Shown piece after piece: positions 6,920 through 55,446 of a stretch of DNA of 64,000 nt (position 1 is its first letter; every line of letters begins with the position of its first letter). The notes beneath the pieces were generated by a model. That model saw nothing but the letters and a program-made list of their open reading frames with translations. It was not told the DNA's origin and ran no database searches. The stretch lies in assembly GCA_026414305.1 (NCBI GenBank), contig JAOAJH010000003.1, positions 64,994 to 128,993 of the forward strand, in the 5' to 3' direction. Made by a program: the position numbers and the translations under genes. Source of the DNA: Candidatus Aenigmatarchaeota archaeon. GTDB taxonomy: Archaea > Aenigmatarchaeota > Aenigmatarchaeia > CG10238-14.

Positions 6920-6931
6920 TTTTGAGGGATT

Positions 6932-9323: not shown

Positions 9324-9351
9324 TTTTATCTATTCATACTAATTTCTTTTT

Positions 9352-48600: not shown

Positions 48601-49437
48601 TCCTATGTTTTCTGAATGTCCATCTACTTTTATCCTTATCTTGCTTGTTTTATACTCAAAAGTTGTTGTGTTTACTAATCCAATGAAATTTACTTTTACT
48701 GTATATTGACCGTCAGAATAAACAGAAATATTATCTTCATAATATCCGTCAGAATAAACATAATTTTCATAAACAGCAGAATCATTATAAATTACTGTTA
48801 TTTGGACAGTGCCGTTAACTGATGTATAGCCGTAAATTCTGACTGTATCGTTTTGTTTATATATTGATTTATCAGTAAAAACAGTCAAGAAATTTTGTTG
48901 TGGTGCATCGGTGTAATTTGCTTTTATTTCGAGCGAAGACGGATTTAAAAACAAGGAATTGTTGCCTTTGTAGACTATCGAGATGTTTGAATTTTGCTGA
49001 ATATATATTTCACCAAGATCATTTGTGTATAGTTTTTCAAAAACGCCATTTGAATATACTTCCAACTCTTGATTTGGCACAAAAGAGCCGTTGTCCATTC
49101 TTAGTGTTGCCTTTTCATCATCAACTGAAATAAAAGTATCAGCCCATATTTCTATCGATGCTTCTTGCTCTATATTGTTGTCTGAAACAGATGAAAACAT
49201 ACCTGTTATTGGAGAGTTTAATGTAGAGTTTGTTGCTATTACAGCAGCAGATGTTATTAACAAAATTATGAACGATGTGAGCAATTGAGTTTGGCCTGAC
49301 TCTGATTTTTTACTCAAATGTAAAAAAACTGCATATATAAAAGCTATCAGTAAACTTGCATATAACGGCAAAATTATGAATAGAGGAAGCATGACAATTG
49401 GTAATGCTGCTGAAAGTGTTGCTTGGCTCTTACTCAT
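15691..49437 (-). CDS. Giant (11,248 aa) multi-modular cell-surface protein with C-terminal TM and cytoplasmic FtsK/HerA-like ATPase domain
   Basis: Uninterrupted 33,747-nt ORF. N-terminal hydrophobic segments, a very long N/T/S/Y-rich ectodomain dense in NxS/T sequons, ~21 reiterated ~350-aa modules, CARDB/Ig-like C-proximal domains, a Gly/Ala linker, a TM helix and a Walker A/B ATPase tail. Antisense ORFs in this span are all short. Confidence 0.9.
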   Translation of the reverse strand: MSKSQATLSAALPIVMLPLFIILPLYASLLIAFIYAVFLHLSKKSESGQTQLLTSFIILLITSAAVIATNSTLNSPITGMFSSVSDNNIEQEASIEIWADTFISVDDEKATLRMDNGSFVPNQELEVYSNGVFEKLYTNDLGEIYIQQNSNISIVYKGNNSLFLNPSSLEIKANYTDAPQQNFLTVFTDKSIYKQNDTVRIYGYTSVNGTVQITVIYNDSAVYENYVYSDGYYEDNISVYSDGQYTVKVNFIGLVNTTTFEYKTSKIRIKVDGHSENIGETKFKSILVNGSLIYGDSKTNGNVKLVLKDAKSDIVAQREVYTEGDFVFNLTLLPKNYGKYTAEIKAETEYGNTTEIIVFDVLKHKVVKPKIKQEKFNYDLGEKIRFEIEAIDEDGMLYPDVNVSAYSIDPEGNITELSVIADNENPGKFYIELDTERDFKPGIHKLKVRFSYVSPNPGEVIVEEEIEFAVGLINVNTDKSIYLKNDKAKITVGVLNNEGKRAYDATVIMNILSPSGQITTFNSYNGDFSTDEFDGSLTLLYDVNETGYYSIEVSAYGSNFSVDYQTFFESRDYVEFDIQRKMKTLIDIGHPNTAELKIKSYVNASNVTFIEKLPNSFLEITVYGARIERKENETWIIWSFNSLNYGDEKTLKYSFTTPDVDPAIYLAGPLTVYYNGSLVYEESKPWTFIVVDVVYYFFKFMPYYYRTSNVTDAVQHVVFNSFDQYRDPVVMCRNHENYSFNVLLTDEADDDAGISQQWEFQVYDGSWKPITSNGVAGFFLMTGDSNPVTGSGVGQTDTCTSDFGTTNGDKCEWGEHFRWNITINRTASLGLTKLRVLPKTRTQGPMFDTNEFYAYIIDCQNINLVRPIKIFGPTGEPTDVISRGHLARIVVPLANYNSSAKQANISIDIKDSSGNSVDWFVEEGKTQSISLSGTSSRPNWSERRVVYTIYVPDNIQATTYTAYVNISYNQTTVQHTKTFTVYTDEGGTSNDIVLFTSTPRKLGANCEDTGGQTTNCGTGHASVCADADGQPCFKNFRQIYVCNYGDYNLTVNVTDFTAGSNVYFITETDGPPAVPQPDYNATGEVRWYNVRINTSSCFMADIPYRPTDDTGEETFILQAEWIDPITREPQMVTNQHVSLISALTGTQSPTITTTLNKTSVYPNEQLALRAIAKLGGSEGFTSIDGAATQTVVHYVELYIPPGFQRPTNFRIVDNNGATVRATSPDPGYPIGSPEEGWIVKFSPYSVGGTVIRFAAAATASVGNLNHYVDFTTTVLPENNITPGGKVFYTNYVGWMRQNKDYLFKTDRNVVNVLSPFIKTVRYYNTTSSNEEEGFPTSNMCQPFSVKLQVFNKGNLPATNFNVTENKYNQTVTHWNDLQFSNFNPSANVYSSNNIIWGNNNINFIPTGKDNSRNYTYLITVPYQTNGTFVFKALTRNVTYLFYDKNYTSLISCGASLIVSEPVIKKGELTNPPIYSGDSFNISSSIYNDGPGSATNVIVLINYTANFNVRNSTNHQNNITYLGNISSKETKQAHTDYYYTVNTTGVIPGTYRFCIIANATENSTRAASCRDVQIQSPPAVIELENPIVISKETGSSSGSWGYNFTFNISVRVSNSDTNVNVCSYFSKTGSEPWLQVGNCQNYNAPGPTTGPWRNYTYEFDPGCNDIGSPVFVKFNATNDAGTTNSTQSLFTITKDKIIFENIIGNNTETRRGKTSTLLALRTRDLNGTLVNNLPLVFYVTLDGSIYDAGYTTSTNASAYANYYFQAICSPKYQVGLQKWRAVLSNNDCYQDNNTETSFGLAVNVTGDIILSFVRPDESSNFTQEQEIPFLGATSDDCNDPLTPTVRYFINKSSTSIECTDISQVGSNAFTCELPTTINTPMGWYNASMYAVRDQHYTNYTNNLGNPGLFYLYPIKKLLQPYAYPTTEGWGYRNWNFSINVSSGDSENVLNASIYMAQFWPPITLCPSNICLNQTPLECDNCIGSTKYWYRNFTAFDQGTWYYQFKLDGTQTEQVLSVTVEKDDTNITYGGEGNLTTLIKDVQPQYLSARVYDLDRQTYNVTSPSATVTFKIFNSGYPEGYIILGTALTNETGYARFLFNITSCYGFYEGTQLWTAEINSSEQYYKPSQMGNGTITIQLPGCQPQIDAEEVLTPKEVFAGRNFTVNATITAWVASAENVFVTLRAPSGWQVDQSTKSLGTVNVGQHYRVSWQVNSTSYGEQNFTVYVNSTNANNETIYSNKLVSYKPATPSVTETLPTIIQPLQSKTFSWPCESGDYRIANLTASWNGTETKTKLYSYNGTTWIEIAERYLNSTSTEFIPILQNQLNSNETGYCVVKIENIGDNYININQLQFTPYYNQTVKVQDINITSSSMQLTGIEPNEKINVTVRVGNSGQSQTGVLWLNITGPSGVVNYSSQNVNIPTGTSLFFVNNIDTTGWQQGTYSIRAYVDYGNKTKRIEPFELSQIQARVYAYDWICNSSTESFSINIYHPFNDFIQYNVSLQIPTGWSSQPSYVLINATSKGNYTANFSITSSNAASETATINATIKYNYPTAKSMTLSKQIQQSNSIAILEVTREMPKYVGNDKVFDAQLTIHNKGCAPTSGTTVVREDISSGWIPANPFIKTNEYGDNIDLVSTQVDLIRNRITWTLGEIGVNEYAVLTYQIKAPVDLSREGQFRWNISWDSRNLIERDNFKVQTANYSQEAHLEFDLEALQQSDYPWVEPRSAQLNRNYDYSLKVTNIGDINATGWNVTLFIPQDCSVTAIQNSGSWNSTSRKISWSLPEIESYDSTYLNFTLNCSVEGKKVLIAEAVKDERQKITFTNDTLISCVGNDCLTEQTYTFTKPVNARYETLSSISLLTRQELFGYRNTIGHAKISLTNDLNVYSTLWQNYSHDSFTLANWQNYTILDSNYVLPSRQIKIEGYADATDDAYTNITLSKISYTWNVGKKFEEPQEIFIKSKIYKYTPLLENATLYINGNSTRLTGGWGEQFNFSVQIRDRFGRNVTVYAWHKKGAGEYSLIGSWVCYSCLNWNQANFSYDYVGSDISSWDFKFNATNDDGTSTLNGYPYTVEADDINVDFAYPGYNMTVNRSRTSDFVILVYDRDNQTSPYYLTQGEVDEGKGRIYISKFGSNATFDLSPSLSANTTGHITRQMSNVSNQWCFVTDYYLGQNYWRGGIEGAVTYKNNATGIYPFVLVGDLSNSYLTQPSNINFTRGSIVNLDGVIKDDCNDVKTDSAKFGAEYILSHESTQYRVTADLTSTSWSIPTNAPLGWYNITMISFTEGTEEGKYWNSSFFKQNAFFLSSTPQLNNVQIQPYPTGSWELKPFNFSVYVTNVDNESVLTRLWLRNQTDNWFVQNTTTCNNCNNYYFLTQNNFSCYNIGEWQLQFNATSATSFTNLTSTFIFNVTKSDISILHSQGNNTDVNRSDTEPSNQRRLAVQIFNLVTRKYETAISTSDVYTWINTGSQYIEEFELSNTSHYYFDFNPNCTFQSGMQKWKVNTTSSCYSTNTSQEFFVNIYGSLINNLILPDGTVNYTQNDQILLLGEITDDCSQAVTNANVRFKLQSGSNVYYCPVSGYITNSTGNYYLCTWDSTGKPGGFYNVTMESSKDYHINGSDYQQNAFFLVTPVQLSSPQVIYPGDGSWGELHNFTVYATHYAPVNVCLLERTPATQWQVTECKYISNPQNTMVNFTKDYTCDQYQASALRYYAFNASEPGVPATNSNTTEQSHVLVKNDIVISYSSGHDSIVNRNGINSTKFVLFVNDTDKNQPAYYLLGASAKPQVWFRVFNGTSYLVDGSNTTNTTGYVEYNFNPSCSYEPGKFNWQGYTSSDSCYKDSTAQEYNVTIIADLTPNVTYPDGETYFRNLLLYIPINGTVTDECNLRYNENATVTFTAISVGFGNSYQCSPVSNNNDGSYNCTLNATEIQEGWYNIRMNATNVQYYNNATVLATNKFRVVQQWVPPVLENVTVLPEQDWGWGENFTFIVNVSDQNAQDINVSLWLSPDNQTWQFISSQICYNCGSKQQLTFYYKGLDCSAIPQYYFKFNASDVYNKTDTGGISFTVNKNDVDARYIDLSTGNNSAVNRSEYKQLRLRVYDTDNKSYVPAGLNARIFVTTNYVDFDLGNANQTDSQGYISYYFSPNCSYQPGLQQWKGGIYNDACYKDSNITSQLNITIFGWLNNTISSPNGQVYYSNQNVSIKTNITDECLIPITNANITLKLNHSNFVDYCIDYSFGNGWYNCTWNISNNPSGWYSITMNSSKNYYNNASLFKSQSFFHQVNPQLTSLFVSPNSTWWGSTFSFRVNVTDDDDYVNVSLWVRCIGGNITPNGCDPSSQFQLANSSIVYDYINQQLVLTKKYPDGVNIGNYEWFINASDLYNGSASSSIYTFNVTKRPVYITYVSGNDTSVSRLGSNTTQVRVRLFRVGVDGGADEPLNGLSVNFWFTQNGNVWSTTPRSNTTGQSGPGYAEFSFNPTCPATDGGIDFFRTGMQWWNATFSSSTEPGIYYYANTSSNFTLFINSSLNVLITRPSGEYYPVGYNVFTVANVSDECEYVQGASVQISVAGEGISCSNNTGSPDGQYSCTLITSVLGTGDYNQTADASKAFYTSASTFKENAFRIRYSPQLNNHQVYPTTEGWGYNFTFNVSAQDSDPGDYLNISLWKSYGGEWIKVSQQNCESCLSQQTFFFYPIFSCEDYVNGPIVRFKFNTSDSYGLKAETSNFTINFEKDDVIFTIVQGNGAIINRSNLNTGNVYNFIVIVNDTDRRNVTVNSSEEPTSQITGYLWFSTEPMNPTFDAGWSNTTVNGSLSYLFNPNCNYRVGLQYWRAGIIGNTCYKDSNMTAPYPSMNIYGQLNTLLYRPPQYTQFNVTDNVTFKYSTYSDCYLQGAEDNGNISVDSSQLTINNTFSCTPINQESTGNYNCTWDTTNKAQGNYTVNITVQKSYYNYNSTLYVDWFYLRNRQPNVTNMSVTPQVSGWGDTYTYTAEIFDEENDTVTCSLYTNTTGTWIYKGSNTITAPGNCSIVVNDFNCNEQGLASFRFEINDTFTRFNTSVSNGPTIVKDNVQLVYILGNNSFVNRTADQTTLFVINATDITKNVKASNANATIWITTDGSFYGSSFNIQTNSTGYLNFYFNPNCSSPSYTLGRQFWLAGITNDACYNSINTTTNFTVNILGDLQLFINAPKGEKYLRTSYPDGEYVYIRANISDDCQLPITNAAVNFTSNRFSQNIYCNPIINELNSNYNCTIDTSSYQAGAWNVTMNASLANYNNNYTIHVYQANQRGYWVETKPVIEPYLPLTPVPAGDGGWGEYWLFATNVTDEDMDVLTLRLWVNSTVDPEIWTFRASNNTVSGVNQTVYFNVTFTSTFANKAFKFKYNVTENTVDFIQNVNETGNGTFYLDKDDTFVQYIEGNNTVVNRSSPLSVSNFTMTVRLWDADKYDTTLGNRRIRFLMTNDNNENYTIVSPPALRTNGTGEQPSSAGWGYATNYSKPDCKFTVGPQKWKAEIYDETPYKSSNSSVSFFTIIAQPLQARVISPKNQTALKGIDNVVIKVNLTDDCGLVRNANVTIRAIDASGVVRGICNPNDPFNPTLDEGNGIYNCTLSASQIFSEDWPTGWYNVSVNASKQYYESSPVYIEHRSFRIGTAPELSNIVVLSQQGSNVGGWGELWSFSVDLIDPDNDNSTVYLWMNLDGNWVLFNQTYWRNGIDPSTITFYNTFNCTQASDLGLKLFKFNVSDDFGFKDEINSTFTLQEDDTEIFISSTTGYELNREGLDQILLSALVTDLDRYSTPVGQDVSTRIRVTYNSSDPNSWNDFNLQTNSSGYINYYLDPDCTYSVGIQQWRAQVYNDVCYKTTTEQDSFIIKGSIYNNLELPDYLSSYPTGSVIEIKYNTTSDCTYTRSDEAPLINVTPTIELSLNGASWETCSPVNSTYGVYNCSWNSSFKQPGFWDIKFTSSKQYFNTKQTVFPDWFEIYNANPTNTTIPTVTPTMGGWGDVYNYSVYLTDSDGDPITCVLYTSTDDGNTWRRQGQRTIGSSGLCSFVVSNFNCNATYTDVGSDNWFKFEITDGYHTPFNISSEEGPIIERNNITITLLSGNNTIVNRTGNEFTTLRVFVNDTTKAWPVGNGTSGNATVYFNVTINGVSYVIDGSNTTLRGNVTYRFNPSCSYNVGDQKWFAYKSGATGGDQCYNDASSSVYNLTIFGNLINNIAIPNGEKYNRDEQNVTIRANVTTDCPSNEGLINNATVNFTIIHIGTSNQYSCTPGSFTNEGNGYYNCSFDTTSKPTQWYNIRMNSSGFQYLTPNNTIKTQAFFVSTRPVLANPTTSPLTGGWGAPHTFSVYVRDDDNDVNNVSLWIRCVGGDCTPTNFWLAKTSLVSASSSPQQVQFVKTDFTALDIGNWEYFFNSTDGLNSANTTIGTFTIDKDTINITLIEGDNVVINRSTTQTVTLRVKVFDVDRNVAISPGEPGTGYFYVTTDPNNANSYVIDKTLSSIEGGSYLTNTFPTLSRCTYGIGPQKWKVEFGSYAYKTTNSSEFSINITTHEIALQIIGPNNQTFRRVIDPIPLIAYASDDCGGLTQATAFFKAYPEYSWTTCNSPTDNLNGTYNCTLYSPPTAGLTYYDLEFNASKQYYNASNTAYKQDSFVLVTNPEITAYAPTTSDSLSPYGWSETWNFTAIVRDVDQNVYNFEKLNISLWIDFGSGYQLINSTICSAIDNPNCASWKAITFLYNKFSCGDIGIKSYKWNVTDQWNYKNETSSTFTIDKSDVAIEFVDQPSSIYRANSTTGRFIYRVLDTDSNSYVINTSTNTAMWITVDGNNYDSGRFVQINSSGYANYDFDPDCNYGYGMQRWIAGVYQDSCYKNKNLSFAPQFEVTAQLRNNIQLPSYNSVYNVTDLIAIRFNTTTECLTEGIIANATPTISLRSPLNVWETCTPVYNEYNGWYNCTWNSTHKKEGYWSITLNSTKTPYFAFNSSMYTNWFWLENLNSTYDNVTLAPGIGGWSRLYNYTIDIDDPEREDINCSLFVSKDNQLTWEYKGSYLLQNGLGKCFVTVHDFSCDDIGKDIYYKWQIVNGEPANAYNTTVYAGPNITESSVQVQLHQGNNTFVNRSFQTKPLVVRVYDTENQTFVYNANTSFWITYDYYNYTLVNQTKTDLLGYVLHSFLPTCMYIPGTQKWIGGVSNDKCYVDINSTEYLVHVNGTLFNNIIQPSSQEFLRGSNITIKVNVSSDCSNEVMNESVTINFTNVKDSTQYLCTPILNENTGLYNCTFNTSTYAARWWNVTAFSVKTLYNFNYTTKSNAFWIETKPELNNPTVTASGDGGWGETYIFTVNFTDEDLDPNTLRLWVNKSSGWTNSNTTTISGINQTVTFIQVNLFSSSDYINSLNNLTKYYFRTQDEVIPTENDIDQTQELNISLQKDDVYINHTYGNSTVVNRTEGSLFFRVRMWDTDRTPWDDLPSGSRGRFWFTKDGSSFTNTIDKFANSSGEIAHLQALECSFQVGPQYWFAELYGNTPYKDTNSSIFNWTIVTVGLTANITNPDGISRLRGIDDIVLRVRVTDDCGGVPNATVVFYVPSESYECNNVYYEGNGYYNCTIPYSTTTTWNTGWHDVTVDVSKQYYNGTFVEKTNAFYLATKPEILLTPPPTATPEQDGGWGENWLFTAITQDLDGDYYNVSLWFNLTGSWQLADSTIVSGPQQVDFPDKTFACENIGQRQFMFKVTDVWGYSNNYTSPFNIDKDDTTIEYVSGAGTQVDREYNDYELIRVQIRDFDRDDYLVGPNINGSVWITTDGVNYILSAINTTDSSSYLSYYFDPNCTYNVGVQKWRAGIYDDVCYKDNNPDFGFTIEITGQLKNYILSPPYNTTFAVGNYVNTTFAVLDECSLPVNQSNGKIEFRSPSGIYESCLPVTSSQNIYNCTWNTTLHQGGYWDIRLNSSKTYYYSNSTLLSQWLYLVNTPPYVENLSVTPTSEGWGRTFTFSLDVDDLQKDNVTCTLLVSTNNGLTWMNKGNSTIYNGYGRCQVNVSTFDCGDIGNDNRYMFEVYDGTNTFNTTNNTNLVIEPNDVQLYYISGNQSYVNRSGSQSTNFVLQVYDLDSNLYPSNVNMSVYVTVDQSNFIENSTPKTSFNGTLNYSFNPSCTFNNLGLQYWKVGANNNICYKNINTTENYTVYIIGDIINKLTGPTGDSYLRGEENVTFALEEIDDCAAPVENANIILNLTSEYGNVYGCEPVTTIGGGIYYCEKNTTGMRARWYNVSVNSSQQYYNSNISLHIRPFFVKTKPIVQNLTITPAQDWGWGERYTFTANVTDEDLDDVVVSLYYKSVVFDDWNQINFTTVSSPLNSTVIMTYQGFTCADQDYQQQFEISALDTRSYLTNSTLIEPWNKTFNLTKDDVILTLESGNGDEVWRNGTDNRRLSVRVYDSDKNTYPGAGYNGMFWVTTNYLSFDIGKQTTTNISSHLNYLFTSEAPQPECDYLTGPQKWIAGVYDDACYKDKNSTNYTITIKSELRPQIDFPYGQGFIRSNPVPFVGRVYDDCGLVSGATSTWTSYIGINEYGCFNKTEANGWYNCTWVSTNRPYGYYDLLFSVTKNYYALNSSFRDDAYFLGTLPSLSNPRILNNHYRGGWGETYDFAVRVTDFDLNINNVSVWKSFDGINWTLVDSRNVSNAVNQDVVFSKKFNCSDMGFNYFYFTTVDQFGYSANTTVMNFTLEYDNVSLVVGLSNSTVRRIGNNLALLNFTIYDYDYGRYAPLASGKVNITLDYTNYSYVMNCTTDSTGQCYVYYNPDCSSLAGVQQWIGKTDDSCYEYVQTVPTQLTVIAQLNTSIQSPYNQQILNRNQYANLTTNVFDECLVAVNDSTVNWYNETFYNIANGYSTTWQIPTFYQLGPETIYVNTSRTYYDKNSNFTNVYIYGWSGVLIENPINASNYLAGFSVNVKCKVTDQNTTSPLQGYTVNFYKNGTFQDSQLTNSEGEAVWLWQTLAETPGWYNITCSISDNNILFYNASKKQDEVQILIKRPLIIQTIQKDAPFVYRNNSFEPNNVNITVKVRDSLVGDANNANITFYNSTALIDYCMTNSSGICTINFNPSDTVTPNVYTIYINATKSGLEDSETNTTTIEVRGKLYLNISSPQNNSFWAKTDNLVLSASVVDESNQPTSSNLRWFNETALVASGENTNWLLLDQTTGNHTLTANATRDYYDKGEQTLIITVSSLADVQWIYPQDGSIMPYPLPFNTVCRVVDSSTGVGIANYLVDFWYNYTPGYIYNGTLLTNASGHATNTFEPIQKGTITFRCNITNDYVKLYTPNIPEALASITVRDTRPPQIYNQSIHPIYGLEANLNYTNISAVVIDDIGVSNVFARIGTPNGTYVNLTLSHMGSNLYSLFYLPPIGGVYNVTIFAVDNPPENNINNTFVGYFYVNGKTDGIVTQPDEIQINGITWVNSESAAITINFTNTGPATAYGVNLTFTADPLNSLIFNETMHQCGIVYNQSSCIFGLLVTVPAATPPSVLKLITDAVWRNPDQSLGIDSEDTNFIIISNKIIDIIEENVTAITPHDKLTDIPDVNVSSIGNDLITDITVTTVGGNISTLCPECQIIIVPNEWGLLEAGANFIVDLKVQVPIAQPPGTYWTYVRASSPETAPDLMPLYITVPLNASWQRSPDSFGIILAPPNTTGYIGDITTTSFANIRIIFNAYKQQNASQLFNIYPSAFSLDNGAVRNVSVNYTIPASYVSAQGMYYAEIIITNTTAMPQEYKTSFWLNVTDIPPIISNVSIIPQTFEMIYENTNISAIITDNFAVSYAFINVTLPNGSSIQQPIQPTGKYYSAVYSTNIHGYHNISICANDTQSLIACTNPIPVLASGKTQINQSFNVSKVDVSNITLFEGKQYVLNVSTNNIGNSRAFNVSVNITSPQNLSTNINNSFYNLILKTQSYSDLVLVNISPATKPGKYMLNFSNSWINLDNTTDESLSQLEFEVLSNPKLNLSSNVTVYVPDGTENNGTLTIQSIGNDDVTNITFSCLSGTVCQDFNISFIPSFISRLNVSEAAYVNISVAVPRQYPLGTYNGTIQVNATNISMNVPIYVIVPMNLSWTQSPLEIYRNVLGDSYGYYGSIELQNTGNTPLLLKVEKTGNISSYLSLAESYITIPIGAVYTIKINYTVPNIAQISNFTGYITTGNTTADQQKSTFVSLHVTPYYVDIKYPTSTNPITGITFGDTISARVNVTFGQVLTDNVTFFVRIFNESFSQAVVVDSAYYSPSQQLWIVNFTAPMLPENRAYDLNITANDTFDNLIRSDVEYRSINYMDSIPPQLTLIVPSKVPAGYVATVNGIAYEEGNLRNVPAIITYPDNRTQQISFIFLYRVNNTYYYQYNITNTTLLGVYTINATACDYSNNCGNASSEFQIYPAALFHGYSKDYEHAAEPITFVNFTLYQPDTTQMLFNITPNMANGYYNVLIDARRYDLQASIFNSTILSRNVEIITDVFNPMIFGDIPSERVSIGTLQGLYIETVLNTTNTSITFDYSDYMSKTICKMNNDCRPAAFFEGSLALFRCDNWVRKTGCLGSWTRLTTTVNSTLHTATAQVTGNISGAYALAPYICGDNTCDHGYGESTFTCPADCPLPPPVTLPPQAAGGAAGGAGGGGGGAGGAGLGQITIPGVPFSIKSTLLFVTLKPGEEEIHSIEITNNEESEMKGEIKVEGFAWEMIMLEESSFTVAPKSTKVIKVKVFALPSNQPGIYTADLVTTIGDKQHRTPITIKVDYGPEPLLDVKVESLTKSVQPGHQAKFQVTVLNMGQTAKVEDIVLNYTLRNLKTEEVITRSQETVAVEDVLTFIKTFDIPEDTPTERYILEVTASYWYGKKVARAATAFDVVYLPAPLIILKALATSWITYAVLLLIAPATIIGYRAYRYYTTMKKIKAKYIFPVDVKKLPQPGPNTVLVGKVAETDINAYTDINKLVMHSLAAGGTGSGKTVSAMATAEELLKRDIPVIVFDPTAQWTGFIRPCKDEEMFKLYPQFGLKREDARGFKTNIIIVKDPHMKLNLKQYMKPGEITVFVMNKLSMADIDTLIRASIQEIFDMNLPESKQLKLLMVYDEVHRLLPKYGGKGGFVALERGAREFRKWGIGLFMISQVLMDFRGAIRANIGTEIQLRTKYEGDINRVKTKYGADYAARITKLTTGTGLVQNPEYNEGKPWFLSFRPLLHDTHRLTDEELAEYDATQQKINEADQRIEKLKARKIDTYDVELELNIAKDKMKQGMFKMAQTYLESVDSRLKALERR
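15694..16800 (-). other. Cytoplasmic FtsK/HerA-superfamily P-loop ATPase domain (C-terminal ~370 aa of the giant protein)
   Basis: Walker A AAGGTGSGKT (nt ~16612..16650). Walker B/DEAH-like LLMVYDEVHRLLP. Arginine-finger-like region further C-terminal. Located after the only C-terminal TM helix. Confidence 0.7.
16813..16912 (-). other. Transmembrane helix of the giant protein (PLIILKALATSWITYAVLLLIAPATIIGY) followed by basic YRAYRYY
   Basis: Hydrophobic 28-aa stretch followed by a positive-inside patch, immediately before the ATPase domain. Translated directly from 16801..16905. Confidence 0.7.
17569..17661 (-). other. Gly/Ala-rich flexible linker (PPVTLPPQAAGGAAGGAGGGGGGAGGAGLG) in the giant protein
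   Basis: Conspicuous GC-rich run (gctcctccggctccgccaccgcctccacctgcaccacctgccgcacc) in otherwise AT-rich DNA. Verified by translating the reverse complement. Confidence 0.8.
22300..45000 (-). repeat. Intragenic array of ~21 diverged tandem protein modules (~350 aa / ~1 kb each) within the giant gene
   Basis: About 20 copies each of three recurring sub-domains. Sub-domain 1: (G)GWGE-x-F-x-V-x-V-x-D-x-D...N-V-S-L-W. Sub-domain 2: V-N-R-S...R-V-Y-D-T-D...F-N-P-x-C-x-Y-x-x-G-x-Q-x-W-x-A-G...C-Y-K-D-x-N. Sub-domain 3: D-E-C...N-A-N-V...Y-x-C-x-P...G-x-Y-N-C-T-W...G-W-Y-N-x-T. Two anchor points mapped by translation: TEGWGYRNW at ~43640..43670 and PECDYLTGPQKW at ~24050..24140. Array boundaries are approximate. 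Confidence 0.6.
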
Positions 49438-50287
49438 ATGTCACCACAATTTTTATTTTTTTGATGCCTAGCTCAGAGGATTTTGTGTCTATCAAAATCT
49501 CTGGATAACAACTTTGGCCAAATTCTAAATCGCAACTGCCTGTTTTTTCGTTTAAAATATTCAAATCAGCCGGAATTATCCATTCATAGGAAATCTTTCT
49601 TAATCCGTTCAAATTACTTGTCAATACAGCCTTGATTGAAAATGTATTACCTCTTGTGGCCTTTTGGTTATAGTCAAACTCTATTTTTACTTTACCACTT
49701 GACACATCAGTTAAATCATTTGAAACATTATAGGATTCAGAAATTTGATTGTCTGAATAATTGCTATCTGGAATTTGGGTTGTAGAAACTGTCGAAAATT
49801 CATCACCTATTGTTGAAGTTGTAGCAGAAATTTGATTGTCTGAAACTGTCGATGTTTCTTGATCCTCGAAAGATGTCGTAGTTGACATGATATCGCTAGA
49901 TGATGTTACTGTCAAAGTGTCGAAAACTTCAGGAAAATTGCCTGTTACAGGATTGCTTGAATTGTCGATGTTTTGTGCTATTATAAGAACAGGTATTGCC
50001 ATCAGTATTAGTGCCAAGAGAAAGATTTGCACCTGTCCTGTTTCAGCTTTTTCGCTAGCTACTGCATGAACTGGTTTGTATTTTGGCAAGAAACAAAGCT
50101 TTGCCATACCGACTTTTCTTTCTTCCACCTTGCCTGATAGGATTAGATCCTTTACGTATTTTGTTGCTGTGTGTCTATGAATGCCTGCTTTGTCTGCTAA
50201 AGAAGATATTGTTAATCCCTCTGGATGCTTTGACAAAACGTCCAAAATGTTTTTCATCAAATTTTGTTCCATATGGAATTTCCCCAT
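49430..50287 (-). CDS. Membrane-tethered winged-helix transcription regulator (N-terminal wHTH, one TM, S/T-rich extracytoplasmic spacer and C-terminal beta-rich domain)
   Basis: N-terminal LDVLSKHPEGLTISSLADKAGIHRHTATKYVKDLILSGKVEERKVGMAKLCFL is a wHTH paralogous to 52933..53235. TM segment VQIFLLALILMAIPVLIIA. Spacer with SDNQIS repeats. Its stop TAA (49430..49432) overlaps the giant gene start ATG (49435..49437). Confidence 0.6.
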   Translation of the reverse strand: MGKFHMEQNLMKNILDVLSKHPEGLTISSLADKAGIHRHTATKYVKDLILSGKVEERKVGMAKLCFLPKYKPVHAVASEKAETGQVQIFLLALILMAIPVLIIAQNIDNSSNPVTGNFPEVFDTLTVTSSSDIMSTTTSFEDQETSTVSDNQISATTSTIGDEFSTVSTTQIPDSNYSDNQISESYNVSNDLTDVSSGKVKIEFDYNQKATRGNTFSIKAVLTSNLNGLRKISYEWIIPADLNILNEKTGSCDLEFGQSCYPEILIDTKSSELGIKKIKIVVTYE

Positions 50288-50532
50288 CTAGTATTGGCCA
50301 ATATTGTTATACAATATTGTCGATTGATATAAGTGCTGCGAATCAATCTAGCAAAAGTGTCGAATCGACAGTATTTTCAAAAAACGACAAAAACATATCT
50401 ATATTTTATATGATTATTTTTCATTTTCAAGCAATTTCTTTCAAAATTGTCGATTTGCAACTTTTATGAAAAGTCGAACATACAAGTGTCGAATAGAAAA
50501 CAATTTTATATCGACAATACAAATAATAAGAT
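50288..50532. promoter_or_regulatory. Divergent promoter region with repeated TGTCGA/TCGACA motifs and a 17-bp palindrome
   Basis: Palindrome ATATTGTTATACAATAT (50301..50317). Motif copies: TGTCGATTGA (50318..50327); perfect 13-bp palindrome TGTCGAATCGACA (50358..50370); TGTCGATTTG (50448..50457); GTCGAA (50473..50478); TGTCGAATA (50487..50495); TCGACAAT (50511..50518). TATA-like AATTTTATAT (~50503). Confidence 0.5.
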
Positions 50533-50937
50533 ATGATAAAGTTTCTAGGTCAGGAAAAGGCTAAACAAACAGAAGATGATCTAAACAAGCAGTTAAACAT
50601 ACAACATGCTCAACTATTCAAGGTAATAGAGGATATGAGAGAGTTAAACCAGAAAATAGAAAGGATATTTGTTGAGTTGGAACAAATAAAACAAAAGTTG
50701 GATAAAACTCCAATTTCGGACAACGGTTTTGAAAATCAAGCTCAACTTAAAAAGGATAAGACAAAAGAAGCAATAAAAATAATTTTGAGAAAAAAAGGCA
50801 GAATGACATCAGAAGATCTATCAAAACTCATTGGATTGTCAAGGTCAAGGTGCAATGAATATTTGAAAGAAATGGAAAGAAACAAAGAGGCTAAATCAGA
50901 AATAGAGAATAGAAAGAAATATTACAGGCTTGTTTAA
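50533..50937 (+). CDS. Coiled-coil protein with C-terminal winged-helix DNA-binding domain (putative regulator)
   Basis: 134 aa. N-terminal coiled coil; C-terminal RMTSEDLSKLIGLSRSRCNEYLKEMERN is wHTH-like. Confidence 0.45.
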   Translation: MIKFLGQEKAKQTEDDLNKQLNIQHAQLFKVIEDMRELNQKIERIFVELEQIKQKLDKTPISDNGFENQAQLKKDKTKEAIKIILRKKGRMTSEDLSKLIGLSRSRCNEYLKEMERNKEAKSEIENRKKYYRLV

Positions 50938-51644
50938 ACACTCATTTCCTTCATTATCTCTTTTGAATAATCCTTCCACAGCTTGAAAACTTTTGCTTCA
51001 TCAAACAAGTCTAAAGGCATCTCTTTTGTCGAAAGGTCTTTTATAACAGATTTGTAATATGAAAAGAAGTTTGTGCCGAAATAAGGTGAAAAGATCAATG
51101 ATTGAGATAGCAACAAAATACTGTCTAAATCAACTTTTAGTTTTTTCTTCAAAGTAACTATTATAAAGTAATTAAAAATTGTTATCAGTGGTGCTGTTAT
51201 GCAAAGCTCATAATTGTTTTTCAAATTCTGTTTGTCGCCAAATAATATCTTAAGCCTTTGAAGCATGAAAAATACTTCTCTGTTTGTGTCAATATAATAT
51301 AAAAGCTTCTTCTTGTTCTTTATACAACTTAATATGTGAAACGGCAAATCGTTTTCAAATGACACTCTGCTTTTTTTAGCATGCTCATCCAAAAAATCAA
51401 ATATCCATTCTGTTTTGCCATATATTAGATCGCCAGAAACGCCTCTTACTTTGACTTTGCCTTTACTTTCAATAAAACCCTTTTCCAACATTTCTTTCCA
51501 AATTGATTTGTTCAGACCTTTTTGATATAAAGCATTGCCGTCATAACCCCAAAAATCTTGTATTTCATTTATCGTCCTCGGTCTATCTAAACAGCTTGAC
51601 CATATTATCCAAAACTTGTCAAAAGCCCAAATTTGCCTCTCCAT
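50934..51644 (-). CDS. Hypothetical protein, possible N-terminal wHTH
   Basis: 236 aa. LDRPRTINEIQDFWGYDGNALYQKGLNKSIWKEMLEKGFI resembles a wHTH. ATGA overlap with the upstream plus-strand gene end. GGGGGGT immediately upstream of the ATG. Confidence 0.4.
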   Translation of the reverse strand: MERQIWAFDKFWIIWSSCLDRPRTINEIQDFWGYDGNALYQKGLNKSIWKEMLEKGFIESKGKVKVRGVSGDLIYGKTEWIFDFLDEHAKKSRVSFENDLPFHILSCIKNKKKLLYYIDTNREVFFMLQRLKILFGDKQNLKNNYELCITAPLITIFNYFIIVTLKKKLKVDLDSILLLSQSLIFSPYFGTNFFSYYKSVIKDLSTKEMPLDLFDEAKVFKLWKDYSKEIMKEMSV

Positions 51645-51784
51645 TCTACCCCCCGGCCAGACGGTCTGAACTGTATGTTTTTTGAAATTGCCTGTTTTTT
51701 GTTTTAGTTAACTATAACATTTTAAATTTTTAAAATTTAGGCACCTATAACATTTTTTTACTAGATGAAACGTTAGTGAAACGA

Positions 51785-51985
51785 TTATTTTTTCCCTATC
51801 TTCCTTAAAACTGGCAAAGCTGTTCTAGGGCTTTCAACTACTTCATATCCTATTGGCAAATCTATTGAATCAACAGGATCTTTTGAGAAATAATATACTT
51901 TTTTCTTTTCAGAAAAATGCAAATAGTATTTTTCACCCTTTTTATTTTTATAAGAATACCCACCAAAAAGTCCCATAAAAATCAC
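51785..51985 (-). CDS. Small basic hypothetical protein (66 aa)
   Basis: KGEKYYLHFSEKKKVYYFSKD...LPIGYEVVESPRTALPVLRK. Looks like a small conserved domain but not placed. Begins 5 nt after the stop of the upstream secreted-protein gene. Confidence 0.3.
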   Translation of the reverse strand: MIFMGLFGGYSYKNKKGEKYYLHFSEKKKVYYFSKDPVDSIDLPIGYEVVESPRTALPVLRKIGKK

Positions 51986-51989
51986 AAAA

Positions 51990-52886
51990 TTACTCTGCTA
52001 CTATTGTCAAAATACTTGTGGAAGTATTACCTGTTGGAACGCCTCTTGGCACTAGCACTGTTAAATTGAGTGTGTGGATCATTCCTGACATGAAATCTTC
52101 TGTTGTTATGTATTTTCTAGCTGAACAAGCTGGTAGTGTTTGATTATAATCCCATTGTGCTACCATTATTCTTGAGCAATCTCTGTATATGTATACACAA
52201 TAATCTTGCAAAGGTCCTGATGAAAACGTCCATGAACTCCATTCAGTTGTGTTTGCTTCAAATGTTGCTGCGATTGTGCCGACAGTCATGTCTCTGTTTG
52301 GCGATGATAAAGATTCTGCTGATGACTTTATTCTAAACTCCATTTGGCTGCCGTTCAAGCATTCACCAACAGTTGCGCTGTCATTGAAATTCCACAAATA
52401 TATGTCAGTGAAATTCCTGAAATATCCCCATGATACAGCGTCTGCTGGATTCAAAGTCATGTATGTTGGTTGCTCTGTTTCATTCCATTCGATTCTATTG
52501 ACAAATCTATAGCCTGCTTCACCTGTCTCGTTTTTCAGCACTAAAAACGATCCTGCAGCATATAATGTAGGATTACCTTTTCCTATCGGATTTGTTGTTT
52601 CTATTGCAAATGAATTAACAGTTGACCATAACTTTGTGAAATTGACTGAACCTGTGTTTTGAATATCAACACTGTAAAGTGTTGCTGTGTATGTTGGCAC
52701 AATGTCCAACCATTCTATAGCAGCTGGTGTCACTATGATTTCTGATAGCAAAGAAACGTTCAAAGATATTATAACAGTATCATTTGTTGCTGCTTTTACA
52801 GAAGGTATGTTTGTGGTCAAAATGAAAGACAAGATAATTGATAAAATCCCTATGATTAAAAAAAATGTATTTCTACCTACTTTCAT
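51990..52886 (-). CDS. Secreted/surface protein with N-terminal signal-anchor (hypothetical)
   Basis: 298 aa. N-terminal hydrophobic segment then AxA-like VKAATN. N-x-S/T rich, beta-rich extracellular composition. Confidence 0.5.
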   Translation of the reverse strand: MKVGRNTFFLIIGILSIILSFILTTNIPSVKAATNDTVIISLNVSLLSEIIVTPAAIEWLDIVPTYTATLYSVDIQNTGSVNFTKLWSTVNSFAIETTNPIGKGNPTLYAAGSFLVLKNETGEAGYRFVNRIEWNETEQPTYMTLNPADAVSWGYFRNFTDIYLWNFNDSATVGECLNGSQMEFRIKSSAESLSSPNRDMTVGTIAATFEANTTEWSSWTFSSGPLQDYCVYIYRDCSRIMVAQWDYNQTLPACSARKYITTEDFMSGMIHTLNLTVLVPRGVPTGNTSTSILTIVAE

Positions 52887-52932
52887 CAGATACCACTAAG
52901 ATTAATATTGTTATCCCTATTTATAAAATTTA

Positions 52933-53235
52933 TTGTTATACAATAATTTTAAATATAATTGTTTATCAATATTTATTATAGATTTTATGTCTGATCCAAA
53001 ACACCATATAATAGAAGTGTTGAAGAAGCATCCTGAAGGTCTGACATTACAAAAAATAGCGCAATTAACAAACATGAGCAGACTGACTGCTACAAAATAT
53101 GTCCACGAGTTAATCGGCGGCGGTATAGTTTACCAAAGAAAAGTTGGTGTTGCAAAATTATGCTATCTTAAAGACAGATACATAAAACTGGTTAAAGAAG
53201 AGGAAATACTGGAACAGTTGAAAAAGATATCATAA
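52933..53235 (+). CDS. Stand-alone winged-helix transcription regulator (paralog of the N-terminal domain of 49430..50287)
   Basis: IEVLKKHPEGLTLQKIAQLTNMSRLTATKYVHELIGGGIVYQRKVGVAKLCYL aligns closely with the membrane-tethered regulator. Confidence 0.6.
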   Translation: MLYNNFKYNCLSIFIIDFMSDPKHHIIEVLKKHPEGLTLQKIAQLTNMSRLTATKYVHELIGGGIVYQRKVGVAKLCYLKDRYIKLVKEEEILEQLKKIS

Positions 53236-53517
53236 ATAGCTTATAAAACCATTTTTTTCCAATTCACTTAAAATGTTTATTAAAGTTGGCTTTACATCTT
53301 CCTGGTTTGCCTCTATTCCCTTTGCTATTTCTTCAGCTATCTGATCTATATTTCTGCTGCCGTCACACAAACTTAAAATAAAGTTTATTCCAGGGTCTAT
53401 TTCCCAAACTCTGGATCCATCAAAAGTTGCATATAAAGACCCTATGTTTGATATTATTTTCAGTTTGCTTGATTTTATCGGTCTTTTTTGAAACTCTTCC
53501 ATATTATTATTAATCAC
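53230..53517 (-). CDS. PqqD-family protein (RiPP recognition element-like peptide chaperone)
   Basis: 95 aa. SRVWEIDPGINFILSLCDGSRNIDQIAEEIAKGIEANQEDVKPTLINILSELEKNGFI matches the PqqD pattern (..iW.lldG.rtv.eI...l...y.v....v..Dv..fl..L...gli). Confidence 0.55.
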   Translation of the reverse strand: MINNNMEEFQKRPIKSSKLKIISNIGSLYATFDGSRVWEIDPGINFILSLCDGSRNIDQIAEEIAKGIEANQEDVKPTLINILSELEKNGFISYL

Positions 53518-53641
53518 ATTTGATAAATATAAATGATAACCATTAAGTTATATACTAATTGTTTATGTTTATAAAAATTATATATTATAAAATATAAATA
53601 TTTATAAATCATTAATTATATTACTACTTTAAGGTGATAAT

Positions 53642-53827
53642 ATGGGGAAAACATATGCTGAAAAAACTGCTGATTTTTTTGGTAGCTTGTTTGCAGCAAT
53701 CTCATTGTACGCAATGTATACAATGATCGATATTGCGTCAAGATACGCAAATACACCAGATCTACCTTTGTCAGCGATTGATGTTTACAATAAAATTCAG
53801 CCTTATTTAAGTCATATTTTGAGATAA
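53642..53827 (+). CDS. Small protein (61 aa), possibly membrane-associated; candidate peptide partner of the PqqD-like protein
   Basis: Strong SD AAGGTGATAAT 4 nt upstream of the ATG and TATA-like TTTATAAA ~55 nt upstream. Hydrophobic middle (FFGSLFAAISLYAMYTMIDIA). Confidence 0.35.
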   Translation: MGKTYAEKTADFFGSLFAAISLYAMYTMIDIASRYANTPDLPLSAIDVYNKIQPYLSHILR

Positions 53828-53914
53828 TTTTCTTTTTTTTAATTAGATAGCTTTAAAAACTTTGAAAATAACAAATTTAATTGCAAAACTCGATATTAGT
53901 TTGAGTGTGTTAAT

Positions 53915-54109
53915 ATGATTATACCAGTAAGATGTTTTTCTTGCGGAAAGCCTGTTGGGCATCTGTGGGAAGATTATCAAAAAAGAGTAAAAAATGGTGA
54001 AGATAGTGAAAAGGTATTGAATGAGTTAGGGTTAGAAAGATATTGTTGCAGATCCCTATTCTTAGGTCATGTTGATTTAATCAAAAAAGTTGCAGAGTTC
54101 AAACATTGA
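53915..54109 (+). CDS. rpoN: DNA-directed RNA polymerase subunit N (Rpb10)
   Basis: MIIPVRCFSCGKPVGHLWEDY...LGLERYCCRSLFLGHVDLI is the archaeal RpoN zinc-bundle signature. Confidence 0.9.
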   Translation: MIIPVRCFSCGKPVGHLWEDYQKRVKNGEDSEKVLNELGLERYCCRSLFLGHVDLIKKVAEFKH

Positions 54110-54119
54110 GGTGTAAATA

Positions 54120-54374
54120 ATGCCCGAGTGGCCAAAAGATAGATTAACAAGATTTGAAGTTGCTAGAATAATAGGCGCAAGATCACTTCAAATATTTCTA
54201 GGTGCACCTGTGTTAATAAAAACAGATTCTTCTGATCCTATGGAAATAGCTGAACAAGAGTTTAAGCAAGTAAAAATACCAATGACAATAAAGAGGCCCA
54301 TGCCTGACGGATCAAAGGAGATAGTTGACATAAAAAAGGCAATTAAAAACTGGGTAGAAGAAAACCCAAATTAA
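54120..54374 (+). CDS. rpoK: DNA-directed RNA polymerase subunit K (Rpb6/omega)
   Basis: RFEVARIIGARSLQIFLGAPVLI matches the RpoK/Rpb6 core. GAGGTG SD 10 nt upstream. Confidence 0.85.
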   Translation: MPEWPKDRLTRFEVARIIGARSLQIFLGAPVLIKTDSSDPMEIAEQEFKQVKIPMTIKRPMPDGSKEIVDIKKAIKNWVEENPN

Positions 54375-54375
54375 A

Positions 54376-55446
54376 CTATCTTGTTATTTTAGCATTCTTG
54401 ACAGTCTCAAACAGCTCTTTAGCCTTGCCTTTCTCAAAATGCTTTCTAACAGGATCTATGATTTTGTCCAAAGCTTGAACAGTAGCATTCTTTAAATCTA
54501 AAGGATGTATATCGCCTGATGCAAACATCTTTTCCAGTTTACCATAACTTTCTACAGTTACATCACCACCAAACTTTTGAGGCCTTTTTATTTCAAAATA
54601 ATCAAACTTTCTCATGATTATGTATTTCCATATTTCCAGTATAGGATTCCCTTCAATTTGTTTTTCTGGGCAATAGGATTTTTTTATTTTTTCTGCTATT
54701 TCCTCTGTGCTATCATGAATAAATATTGCAGTGTGAGGTTTTGATTTGCTCATTTTAGCATCTAAATCGTCTTTTCCCATTCTTCCTGCTTCAAACCCTT
54801 GCAGTCCGGCTAATAGATGGTGATGAACACACACTCTTATCGAGCCATCAATTTTAGGTGCCAATTCTCTTGTCAATATTGTTGCCTTTCTTTGATCCAT
54901 ACCGAGCTGCAAAATGTCTGCCTTAATGTAAAAAGGATCCCACGCCTGCATCATAGGATAAAGTAGCTGTGCTGTATATTGCATTTCGCCTTCCTTTCTT
55001 CCCATAATTGTGCAAGCTCTCACTGTTCGCTGAACAGTCGTGTTTTTAGCAATATCTATCACACCTCTCCAATAATCAGGATCAGAAACAGCATCACTTG
55101 TCCACATTATTTTTACTTTTTTAATGTCAACTCCACAAGCCTTCCATCCCTCAATGTAATATTCTCCTGTTTTTTTAATCAAATCTAAATTTCCCCCCAT
55201 TTTATTATTTATGTAAGCAAACCAATCAGCTATCCACAAGATAAAATCACATTTAGCATCCAGCATATCCTGAAGTTTTATTGCCCTTAAAATACCAGAG
55301 CCTAAATGAAGCAAGCCTGATGTTTCAAAACCGTCATATGCAGTTGGTTTTTGCTTAGTTTGAAGCAAAATTTTCAAGTCATCTTCTGTTATTATTTCCT
55401 CTGTTGGTGCTTTCTTTATCAATTCAATTCTCCTTTCCAAGTCCAT
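54376..55446 (-). CDS. tyrS: Tyrosyl-tRNA synthetase, archaeal type
   Basis: HLGS (HIGH variant), KMSKS, and close overall similarity to archaeal TyrRS (YDGFETSG..HLG; YCPEKQIEGNPILEIWKYII; KRPQKFGGDVTVESYGKLEKMFASGDIHPLDLKNA). Confidence 0.85.
   Translation of the reverse strand: MDLERRIELIKKAPTEEIITEDDLKILLQTKQKPTAYDGFETSGLLHLGSGILRAIKLQDMLDAKCDFILWIADWFAYINNKMGGNLDLIKKTGEYYIEGWKACGVDIKKVKIMWTSDAVSDPDYWRGVIDIAKNTTVQRTVRACTIMGRKEGEMQYTAQLLYPMMQAWDPFYIKADILQLGMDQRKATILTRELAPKIDGSIRVCVHHHLLAGLQGFEAGRMGKDDLDAKMSKSKPHTAIFIHDSTEEIAEKIKKSYCPEKQIEGNPILEIWKYIIMRKFDYFEIKRPQKFGGDVTVESYGKLEKMFASGDIHPLDLKNATVQALDKIIDPVRKHFEKGKAKELFETVKNAKITR

Follow-up and report, generated by a model that had tools for sequence, protein, structure and literature searches.

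We analyzed a 64,000-nucleotide stretch of contig JAOAJH010000003.1 from a tiny Candidatus Aenigmatarchaeota archaeon of symbiotic type (the window; G+C content 33%), centering on a small minus-strand gene that lies directly upstream of the gene for a giant surface protein. The small gene encodes, in order, a predicted winged helix-turn-helix (wHTH), a transmembrane (TM) helix, a Ser/Thr-rich linker and a beta-sandwich, and our subject is the relation of this small protein to the giant protein, to a divergent regulator gene and to the promoter region in between. The principal features, in window coordinates, are:

49430 to 50287, minus strand: the small gene (wHTH-TM-linker-sandwich), an open reading frame (ORF) of 285 codons.
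50078 to 50272, minus strand: predicted cytoplasmic wHTH, amino acids 6-70 (Pfam, profile search, AlphaFold, Foldseek).
49964 to 50053, minus strand: juxtamembrane motif ETGQVQ and predicted Pro-containing TM helix ending in AQN, amino acids 79-108 (hydropathy, AlphaFold, family alignment).
49697 to 49963, minus strand: disordered Ser/Thr-rich linker, amino acids 109-197 (AlphaFold, composition).
49433 to 49696, minus strand: predicted extracytoplasmic beta-sandwich of macroglobulin/CARDB/NEW3 type, amino acids 198-285 (AlphaFold, profile search, Foldseek).
49430 to 49437, minus strand: stop/start overlap ATGAGTAA, an octamer common to the small and giant ORFs.
15691 to 49437, minus strand: the giant gene, 11,248 amino acids (ORF, hydropathy, Pfam).
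49228 to 49425, minus strand: N-terminal membrane anchor of the giant protein, its residues 5-70 (KKSESGQTQ, H-domain and ATNST; hydropathy).
15694 to 16899, minus strand: C-terminal TM segment of the giant protein (residues 10847-10867), followed by a HerA/FtsK-type P-loop ATPase and a terminal coiled coil (hydropathy, Pfam, structure).
50533 to 50937, plus strand: divergent soluble regulator, with an N-terminal coiled coil and a C-terminal wHTH of HTH_24/TrmB type (Pfam HTH_24, E 6.5e-9).

The small gene probably starts at M6 (position 50272), giving a protein of 280 residues, because the NCBI call and all homologues begin at the equivalent of M6; an identical 280-residue protein with this start is recorded as a hypothetical protein of a 'Candidatus Aenigmarchaeota archaeon' metagenome-assembled genome (MAG). 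The original prediction, made from the sequence alone, had described a cytoplasmic wHTH, one TM segment, a Ser/Thr-rich spacer with SDNQIS repeats and an ectodomain, all of which are indeed in the sequence on the minus strand. For the wHTH, the Pfam matches to HTH_11, MarR_2, HTH_IclR and HTH_24 in residues 12-66 (E 1e-4 to 6e-4) are sub-threshold and all converge on this one stretch, precomputed Pfam assignments of homologues include PF08279, PF13412, PF09339 and PF12802, and a profile of 17 family members matched the wHTH domains of CodY and TtgV in the PDB. An AlphaFold model built on the alignment of these 17 members places helices at 3-20, 27-34 and 38-51 plus a two-stranded wing (predicted local distance difference test score, pLDDT, ~88), and with this N-terminal domain Foldseek retrieved the wHTH domains of MarR, Z-alpha and Rio2. 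The wHTH is also the best-conserved part of the family (0.77, as against 0.65 for the TM helix, 0.57 for the sandwich and 0.44 for the linker), with the invariant residues H21-P-E-G-L-T-I27, G35, H37-R-H-T40, K43, R57, G60, K63 and L64, which fall in the turn, the recognition helix (H37-R38-H39-T40..K43) and the wing (R57, G60, K63). Only this portion matches the MarR, IclR and TrmB families, below their cut-offs; what follows it is a TM helix, a linker and a sandwich in place of the dimerisation or effector domains that complete the architecture of those families.

Hydropathy, flanking charges and AlphaFold were the basis for the membrane topology. They give one hydrophobic helix (hydropathy peak 82-109, AlphaFold helix 84-108) that is kept in 77 family members. 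The juxtamembrane motif has the family-wide pattern [GAS]Q, and its GQx[QE] and [KR][GAS]Q forms are each followed by a Pro-containing hydrophobic stretch ending in AQN. Three Lys or Arg residues precede the helix and none follow it, and these charges, three N-x-S/T sequons in the linker and an outside Cys pair (C252, C260) fit a predicted orientation with the N-terminus inside and the C-terminus outside. The linker is 40% Ser and Thr, has SDNQIS at 149 and 178, and is probably glycosylated, judging from its composition and sequons. The ectodomain, for which structure prediction had been suggested, is modeled as a beta-sandwich of six strands (residues 198-285, pLDDT ~90) that Foldseek matched to macroglobulin (MG) domains; its conserved residues are R212, G213, P239, C260 and G274, and one homologue (P0018) carries PF10633.

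The giant protein has an ectodomain of ~10,770 residues between its TM-like segments, with Pfam matches to MG2, NPCBM_assoc, DUF11 and Big_1. Its last ~380 residues, which together with the preceding TM segment had escaped the original prediction, contain a P-loop ATPase (Walker A GGTGSGKT; Pfam DUF87, E 7e-8, and HerA_C), whose model (pLDDT 86.7) ends in long helices and is closest in structure to HerA (4d2i), FtsK (2ius) and the conjugative coupling protein TcpA (6o1w). The succession of anchor, Ig-like repeat ectodomain, TM segment, HerA-like ATPase and long C-terminal helices is that of the SPEARE giants of nanohaloarchaea, in which a signal or anchor at the N-terminus is followed by Ig-like repeats over thousands of residues and then by a TM segment, a VirB4/TraG/HerA-like ATPase and a coiled coil (PMC6642349, PMC10266531). 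By this published plan, and not by direct sequence comparison, we assign the giant to the SPEARE-type surface proteins of DPANN archaea, a kind already described. Neither a small upstream subunit nor a DNA-binding domain figures in those papers, whereas the giant of the window has a dedicated anchor-sandwich partner, in relatives often with a wHTH, and a divergent regulator. Relatives of ~725 amino acids that combine a TM segment with a DUF87 ATPase are common membrane proteins in DPANN, and in a Woesearchaeota contig (from the set of loci L014 and L015) a 15,808-amino-acid ORF overlaps the start of a separate 699-amino-acid ATPase copy, so that giant and ATPase are either fused or adjacent; no separate second ATPase gene after the giant gene was seen among the scanned proteins of the window. 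This giant gene is the only one that was read to its 3' end. Beyond that end, between 11702 and 15645 on the minus strand, lie genes for a 462-amino-acid protein, a PAS-HisKA-HATPase histidine kinase (13141-14256), a 250-amino-acid protein and a stand-alone receiver domain (11702-12067); the 462- and 250-residue proteins were assigned to no family, and the two-component system may be linked to the giant locus.

For comparison ~45 related loci were read, all from MAGs. Seven homologues of the small protein at 29-44% identity were traced to 13 contigs, a scan with one genome per species gave 26 further loci, nearly all labelled Aenigmatarchaeota, and a further metagenome scan with an alignment gave only 7 loci. 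Two short contigs with family members (L022 and L041) are labelled Thorarchaeota and Bathyarchaeia, probably through binning errors rather than because the family occurs outside Aenigmatarchaeota. The original prediction had proposed that the stop codon of the small gene overlaps the giant ATG and that co-occurrence in related genomes should be checked, and both points hold: in the window the TAA falls within codons 2 and 3 of the giant gene (an 8-nt overlap), and the linkage of small and giant genes is kept in every related locus read. In 13 of the 13 contigs of the first set a very long ORF (up to 12,230 amino acids) begins 4-11 nt before the small-gene stop, and those of the 26 further loci in which the two genes are split overlap stop and start in all but one, the exception being an apparent 25-nt gap in L026; overlaps across the other split loci run from 4 to 35 nt. 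A 128-nt gap in L001 proved to be a start-call artefact, as an in-frame ATG overlaps the stop by 8 nt and the N-terminus thus corrected is homologous to that of the window giant. A Shine-Dalgarno-like GGTGA lies 3 nt upstream of the giant ATG in the window and at 3-4 nt in about half of the split loci, where it sits within conserved C-terminal codons of the small gene; the remainder have none. Such an overlap pattern would fit termination-reinitiation coupling.

The third gene of this arrangement is the divergent regulator, also missed by the original prediction, whose recognition helix LSR(S/T)RCxEYL is conserved. A divergent HTH_24 gene of 129-150 codons lies upstream of the small gene in 13 of the 13 contigs of the first set and in every locus of the 26-locus scan with upstream sequence; HTH_24 regulator, small gene and giant gene form the long-range conserved core.

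The small gene itself varies in two ways. In seven loci (L025, L028, L030, L032, L034, L035 and L037) the ORF encoding the wHTH and TM helix continues without a stop for 545 to >2,270 amino acids and is still open at the end of the DNA read; residues 695-1119 of the L025 product align with residues 276-695 of the window giant at 41% identity, and L035 has HTH_IclR and MG2 matches within a single chain. Independent gene calls of 1,871-2,853 amino acids with an N-terminal wHTH (P0179, at 2,853, P0184, P0192 and P0193) agree with this. These fused forms occupy two clades in a neighbour-joining tree of the HTH_24 protein, a rough distance tree that we used as the locus tree. Conversely, a profile search found more than 100 representatives of 220-290 amino acids that align only from the juxtamembrane region to the C-terminus and thus lack the wHTH. 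Nine wHTH-less loci were read (L044-L052), belonging to at least two lineages of the tree, and the divergent HTH_24 gene is present in 9 of the 9. In the three whose gene tables were read, the ORF downstream overlaps the anchor-sandwich gene (at least 1,899 amino acids in L044, at least 2,454 in L045, only 424 in L046), leaving no space for a wHTH. Judged from these sequences, what stays constant is the combination of HTH_24 regulator, anchor-linker-sandwich and giant protein. The wHTH is an optional cytoplasmic head, present in most lineages and absent from some, and fusion or fission has occurred more than once. In three of the fused-type giants (L025 at nt ~6780-7160, L028 and L032) the ectodomain carries an intein/Hint-like insert, matching Pfam Intein_splicing at E 1.5e-6, below the gathering score.

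These comparisons would suit a purely structural role, in which the small protein would be a subunit, anchor or assembly partner of the giant, its wHTH a protein-protein adaptor or a relic, and any operators nearby would be served by soluble factors such as the HTH_24 protein or free wHTH proteins like w82 (below). The anchor-linker-sandwich holds the same genomic position without a wHTH, forms one chain with the giant in two clades, and has a sandwich of the type repeated in the giant ectodomain; moreover, its TM and juxtamembrane segment is shared with the giant's own anchor (39% identity over 46 amino acids at the giant N-terminus, E 0.002). That the sandwich is a copy of a particular giant repeat was rejected, as BLASTP gave no significant match and the TM region alone aligns. 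We nonetheless consider an exclusively structural protein unlikely, first because it is the wHTH that is best conserved, with invariant residues in recognition helix and wing, and second because of the promoter elements, which are:

50288 to 50532, no strand: the divergent promoter region, 245 bp, with 6 TGTCGA/TCGACA half-sites (motif scan).
50299 to 50320, no strand: proximal candidate operator, two overlapping CAATATTGT palindromes containing ATTGTTATACAAT at 50303-50315 (motif scan).
50358 to 50370, no strand: palindrome TGTCGAaTCGACA, with equivalents kept in distant, fused and wHTH-less loci.
50487 to 50516, no strand: a TGTCGA-N18-TCGACA pair flanking the TATA-like TTTTATAT of the divergent HTH_24 gene (motif scan).

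TGTCGA/TCGACA half-sites number 25 in the whole window against 10.7 expected, and over 30 loci their density is 10.7 per kb in this intergenic region and 0.4-1.0 per kb elsewhere. Many distant, fused and wHTH-less loci retain a palindrome TGTCG[AG]-N0-3-TCGACA next to ATTTAAA, and a TCGACA immediately after the second TATA-like box is also widely retained; in clades without the compact palindrome, half-sites still flank a TATA-like box. (TATA-like boxes were picked by eye.) The proximal element is different. It lies downstream of the TATA-like CTTATATC (50326-50333) and ahead of the small gene's start codon, and its 13-mer ATTGTTATACAAT occurs twice in the 64 kb where 0.46 copies are expected. 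The seven closest loci have their sole copy of the 13-mer 28-42 nt before the homologous start, and other clades have TGTACAATATTGTACA or TGTACA-N4-TGTACA at the same position, once per locus; overall the proximal palindrome is single and lies 25-50 nt upstream of the start. It is found in about 37 of the 39 wHTH-bearing loci, with degenerate versions in the other two, and in none of the 9 wHTH-less loci, which span at least two lineages and keep the TGTCGA palindrome. This element, coming and going with the wHTH, counts against a wHTH without DNA-binding function. The wHTH-less loci do have a single GGTAYACC-like palindrome adjoining the ATG, which we treat as a separate feature because the related TTGGGTCC also occurs in wHTH-bearing loci. 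Across loci the half-sites are constant and the spacer variable, which points to a protein operator and away from an RNA stem. Nor is the leader likely to hold an RNA hairpin or a known RNA family, because compensatory changes are absent and Rfam gave nothing in 49000-54500. In one locus (L008, nt 9148-10000) a HicB-like antitoxin gene, with ~600 bp, has been inserted into the divergent promoter, flanked by a duplicated stretch of ~35 bp that includes a TGTCGA...TCGACA pair.

The small-protein wHTH has a free-standing paralogue, which we call w82, 2.6 kb away, and the second 13-mer copy lies at its promoter:

52987 to 53235, plus strand: w82, an 82-amino-acid wHTH protein (BLAST, Pfam).
52932 to 52944, no strand: the other exact copy of ATTGTTATACAAT, in the divergent promoter between w82 and a secreted-protein gene (window scan).

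The original prediction had called w82 a stand-alone wHTH at 52933-53235 beside a secreted-protein gene. Its paralogy stands (56% identity over 55 amino acids, E 1e-18), as does the neighbor, a divergent 298-amino-acid protein (51990-52886) with a signal-peptide-like N-terminus; the start does not, the real ATG being at 52987, which gives 82 residues as in four related loci; the former 5' extension covers promoter DNA. W82 passes the HTH_IclR gathering score, aligns over its full length, at 53-55% identity, to the cytoplasmic ~82 residues of tethered proteins of the L019/L021/L026/L032 type, and ends where their juxtamembrane motif begins, so that the tethered protein looks like a w82-type regulator joined to an anchor-sandwich subunit. 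An operator common to the small gene and w82 as a general rule was rejected, because the exact 13-mer repeat is found in this window only, and the additional TGTACA palindrome that precedes L010's small wHTH gene is missing from L018. A w82 gene was not seen in most palindrome-bearing loci, which again tells against the view that soluble w82-like factors alone serve the palindromes.

We therefore arrive at a reading that we hold with about even confidence: the small gene encodes a small membrane subunit of the SPEARE-type giant module that doubles as a transmembrane transcription regulator, feeding back on its own operon. The original prediction had proposed either a regulator of this locus or, alternatively, an anchor or chaperone subunit for the giant. 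Regulation of the locus is supported by the conserved palindrome in the gene's own promoter co-occurring with the wHTH, and the subunit is equally borne out by the fusions in two clades and by wHTH-less versions in the same position, so that the two are not alternatives; each belongs to a different part of the protein. The C-terminal two thirds, going by domain content and position, are a structural partner of the giant, universally conserved directly upstream of it and continuous with its chain in two clades, and the N-terminal third is a regulator domain.

Under this feedback reading, the tethered wHTH, probably as a dimer, would bind its own operon's palindrome, the one that separates the TATA-like box from the start codon; in the window this palindrome is ATTGTTATACAAT, and in other clades a pair of TGTACA hexamers spaced by one helical turn takes its place. 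In archaea, regulators bound at the TATA box and start site or beyond them generally act as repressors, and binding would most likely repress here because the element coincides with, or closely follows, the position where transcription is expected to begin. Each giant chain would retain one wHTH, through fusion or, where fission has occurred, through translational coupling, so that the number of wHTH domains at the membrane would report the amount of giant protein made and cap transcription of the 34-kb gene. The soluble coiled-coil HTH_24 protein would bind the TGTCGA boxes and control both promoters. The ectodomain may in addition pass on a signal, for instance on assembly state or host contact. 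We make these assignments, of the proximal element to the tethered wHTH and of the TGTCGA boxes to the HTH_24 protein, because the proximal palindrome tracks the wHTH while TGTCGA persists without it.

Several points weigh against this interpretation. The Pfam wHTH matches in the window protein itself are below gathering thresholds, and the TM helix and topology are predictions. The contrast with wHTH-less loci amounts to about 2-5 independent lineages, the palindrome of the w82 promoter is degenerate in other window-type loci (1-2 mismatches, different site), and the real binder could be a soluble w82-like protein encoded elsewhere. Which of three wHTH proteins would bind which element is judged from co-occurrence, and the sign of regulation from position relative to a TATA-like box chosen by eye. 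Finally, a membrane-bound factor must reach its operator, although the very small cell makes such reach plausible. Precedents speak in its favor: membrane-bound regulators are widespread in archaea (PMC10269533), and ArnR controls surface structures from the membrane (PMC6396743).

A transmembrane transcription regulator has been defined as a protein with a DNA-binding domain and at least one TM region (PMC10269533), and the small protein, with its predicted wHTH and single helix, agrees with this broad definition. The original prediction had gone further in suggesting a one-component regulator like ToxR or CadC. The topology supports the comparison, as in ToxR, TcpP and CadC a cytoplasmic N-terminal DNA-binding domain is followed by a single TM segment and an extracytoplasmic C-terminal domain (PMC10269533), but membership in that family fails. 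Their wHTH is of OmpR/PhoB type, whereas ours is MarR/IclR/HTH_11-like (no Trans_reg_C match at E <= 0.1; best matches HTH_11, MarR_2, IclR and CodY); in place of a periplasmic sensor there is a generic macroglobulin/CARDB-like sandwich, which matches no sensor family and doubles as the opening module of a giant surface protein; and the small protein, which comes from an archaeon, forms one chain with the product of its presumed target or is linked to it by translational coupling. Its ectodomain might still sense an external cue or host contact and so switch DNA binding. Such a role would draw on the topology, on the conservation of the ectodomain with its Cys pair and on a giant of the type thought to contact host cells (PMC10266531). 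It seems to us improbable, in view of the absence of an OmpR-type wHTH and of any known sensor domain, of the lack of a match to a ligand-binding family by Pfam, profile search or Foldseek, and of the use of the same sandwich in wHTH-less and fused forms, by which its primary role looks structural.

ArnR and ArnR1 of Sulfolobus acidocaldarius are likewise archaeal membrane-bound HTH regulators of surface-structure genes, and the ArnR box, TCGAC-N5-GTCGA, an inverted repeat in the target promoter, shares its core with the TGTCGA boxes here (PMC6396743). ArnR differs in having a cytoplasmic HAMP/sensor part, two C-terminal TM helices and no ectodomain, in being neither in an operon with its target nor fused to it, and in activating from upstream boxes (PMC6396743). 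The small protein has a single TM helix directly after its wHTH, no HAMP match and a large external part. By domain content, then, it belongs to neither the ToxR/CadC nor the ArnR family.

The juxtamembrane motif raises another possibility, that a prepilin-peptidase-like (A24) or other intramembrane protease would cut at [G/A/S]-Q and free a soluble wHTH of ~84 residues for every processed subunit. Surface assembly would thereby be reported to the chromosome, in fused lineages once per giant chain. The motif reads GQx[QE] in 43 of the 77 family members and [KR][GAS]Q in many others (e.g., RKGQVQ, KKSQLK, RKAQAQ), it recurs after a short leader at the N-termini of split giants (GQSQLL) and of wHTH-less homologues, and w82 corresponds exactly to the fragment that would be freed. 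In archaeal prepilins of EppA type the cut falls at KG|Q[VLI], on the H-domain's cytoplasmic flank (PMC4371748, PMC4858521), and the class III signal peptides share with our protein G/A/S at -1 (here G84, before Q85-V-Q and the helix), Gln at +1, a hydrophobic stretch of ~20 residues, a glycosylated beta-rich domain and the placement of the would-be processing site on the cytoplasmic side (PMC4371748). The -2 residue, for which a charge is described as critical in archaea (PMC4371748), is on the other hand Thr in the window protein (ETGQVQ) and Leu or Ile in many relatives, being charged only in a subset (RKGQ, KKSQ, RKAQ). Pfam Class_IIIsignal matched none of 10 anchors even at E <= 10, although HMMER filters may hide weak matches to so short a profile, and the scanned proteins of the window included no A24 peptidase. 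The 'leader' here would be a folded domain of 84 residues, for which we know of no precedent. Release is thus quite unlikely, in our estimate; if it did occur, the promoter would be informed directly of the assembly of a cell-contact apparatus, by Notch- or FlgM-type logic in a prokaryote, with w82 as the permanently released form.

The ATPase at the far end of the giant invites comparison with DNA translocases. The gamma domain of FtsK guides DNA for that motor and the wHTH of Streptomyces TraB acts at clt repeats; both read short DNA motifs and are combined with a membrane-anchored ATPase of the HerA/FtsK superfamily. By analogy, the tethered wHTH might recruit or guide DNA for the giant's motor, and the repeats would be a transfer or loading site instead of operators. 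The structural neighbors of the ATPase named above are double-stranded DNA translocases and a conjugative coupling protein, and the fused forms have wHTH and motor on one polypeptide, both predicted to be cytoplasmic. The half-site array, furthermore, reaches into the coding region beyond what amino-acid content would explain: the linker-coding DNA of the small gene has 4 extra TGTCGA/TCGACA half-sites (at 49790, 49847, 49918 and 49963), and codons 100-300 of 30 homologous genes hold 65, against 11.0 +/- 3.4 after synonymous-codon resampling, an enrichment that is strong in some clades and absent from others. Yet the TGTCGA array persists without the wHTH and so would belong to another factor, whereas the element linked to the wHTH is single-copy and placed like a promoter operator. 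In the FtsK and TraB systems the wHTH comes after the motor, within one cytoplasmic arm, and steers the pumping of DNA, while here it is on a separate subunit or at the opposite end of an extracellular chain of ~11,000 residues. The published analysis of related nanohaloarchaeal giants also favors protein secretion (PMC10266531), and we regard a DNA-handling adaptor as very unlikely.

Several other genes accompany this region. A 95-amino-acid PqqD-like ORF (53230-53517, minus strand; Pfam PqqD, E 1.5e-7) is convergent with w82 and overlaps its last codons, and the pair is kept in L001, L002, L004 and L008. In the closest loci, the secreted 298-amino-acid protein is accompanied by a highly conserved protein of 63-66 amino acids (MGLFGGYSYKNKKGEKYYLH..., 51785-51985, minus strand) and by a 236-amino-acid protein with one TM-like segment (50934-51644, minus strand); none of the three was assigned to a family. 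A 254-amino-acid gene upstream in L006 and L012 was considered as a homologue of the 236-amino-acid gene and rejected, the alignment showing no real similarity, so that long-range conservation is limited to the three-gene core.

Giant surface proteins occupy several percent of the tiny genomes of DPANN archaea and are believed to mediate host-cell contact (PMC10266531). To our knowledge nothing has been reported on their control or assembly, and our literature search found no paper linking a DNA-binding protein to SPEARE-type giants. The present locus offers handles on the problem, namely a dedicated small subunit, an attached DNA-binding domain, and two candidate operators, each with a candidate binder, all of them open to in vitro tests that need no culture of the organism. 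Should the feedback reading be correct, a transmembrane regulator would form part of its own structural target, for which we know of no earlier case, and the cell would have a simple means of metering a 34-kb gene, by keeping count of the protein that has reached the membrane.

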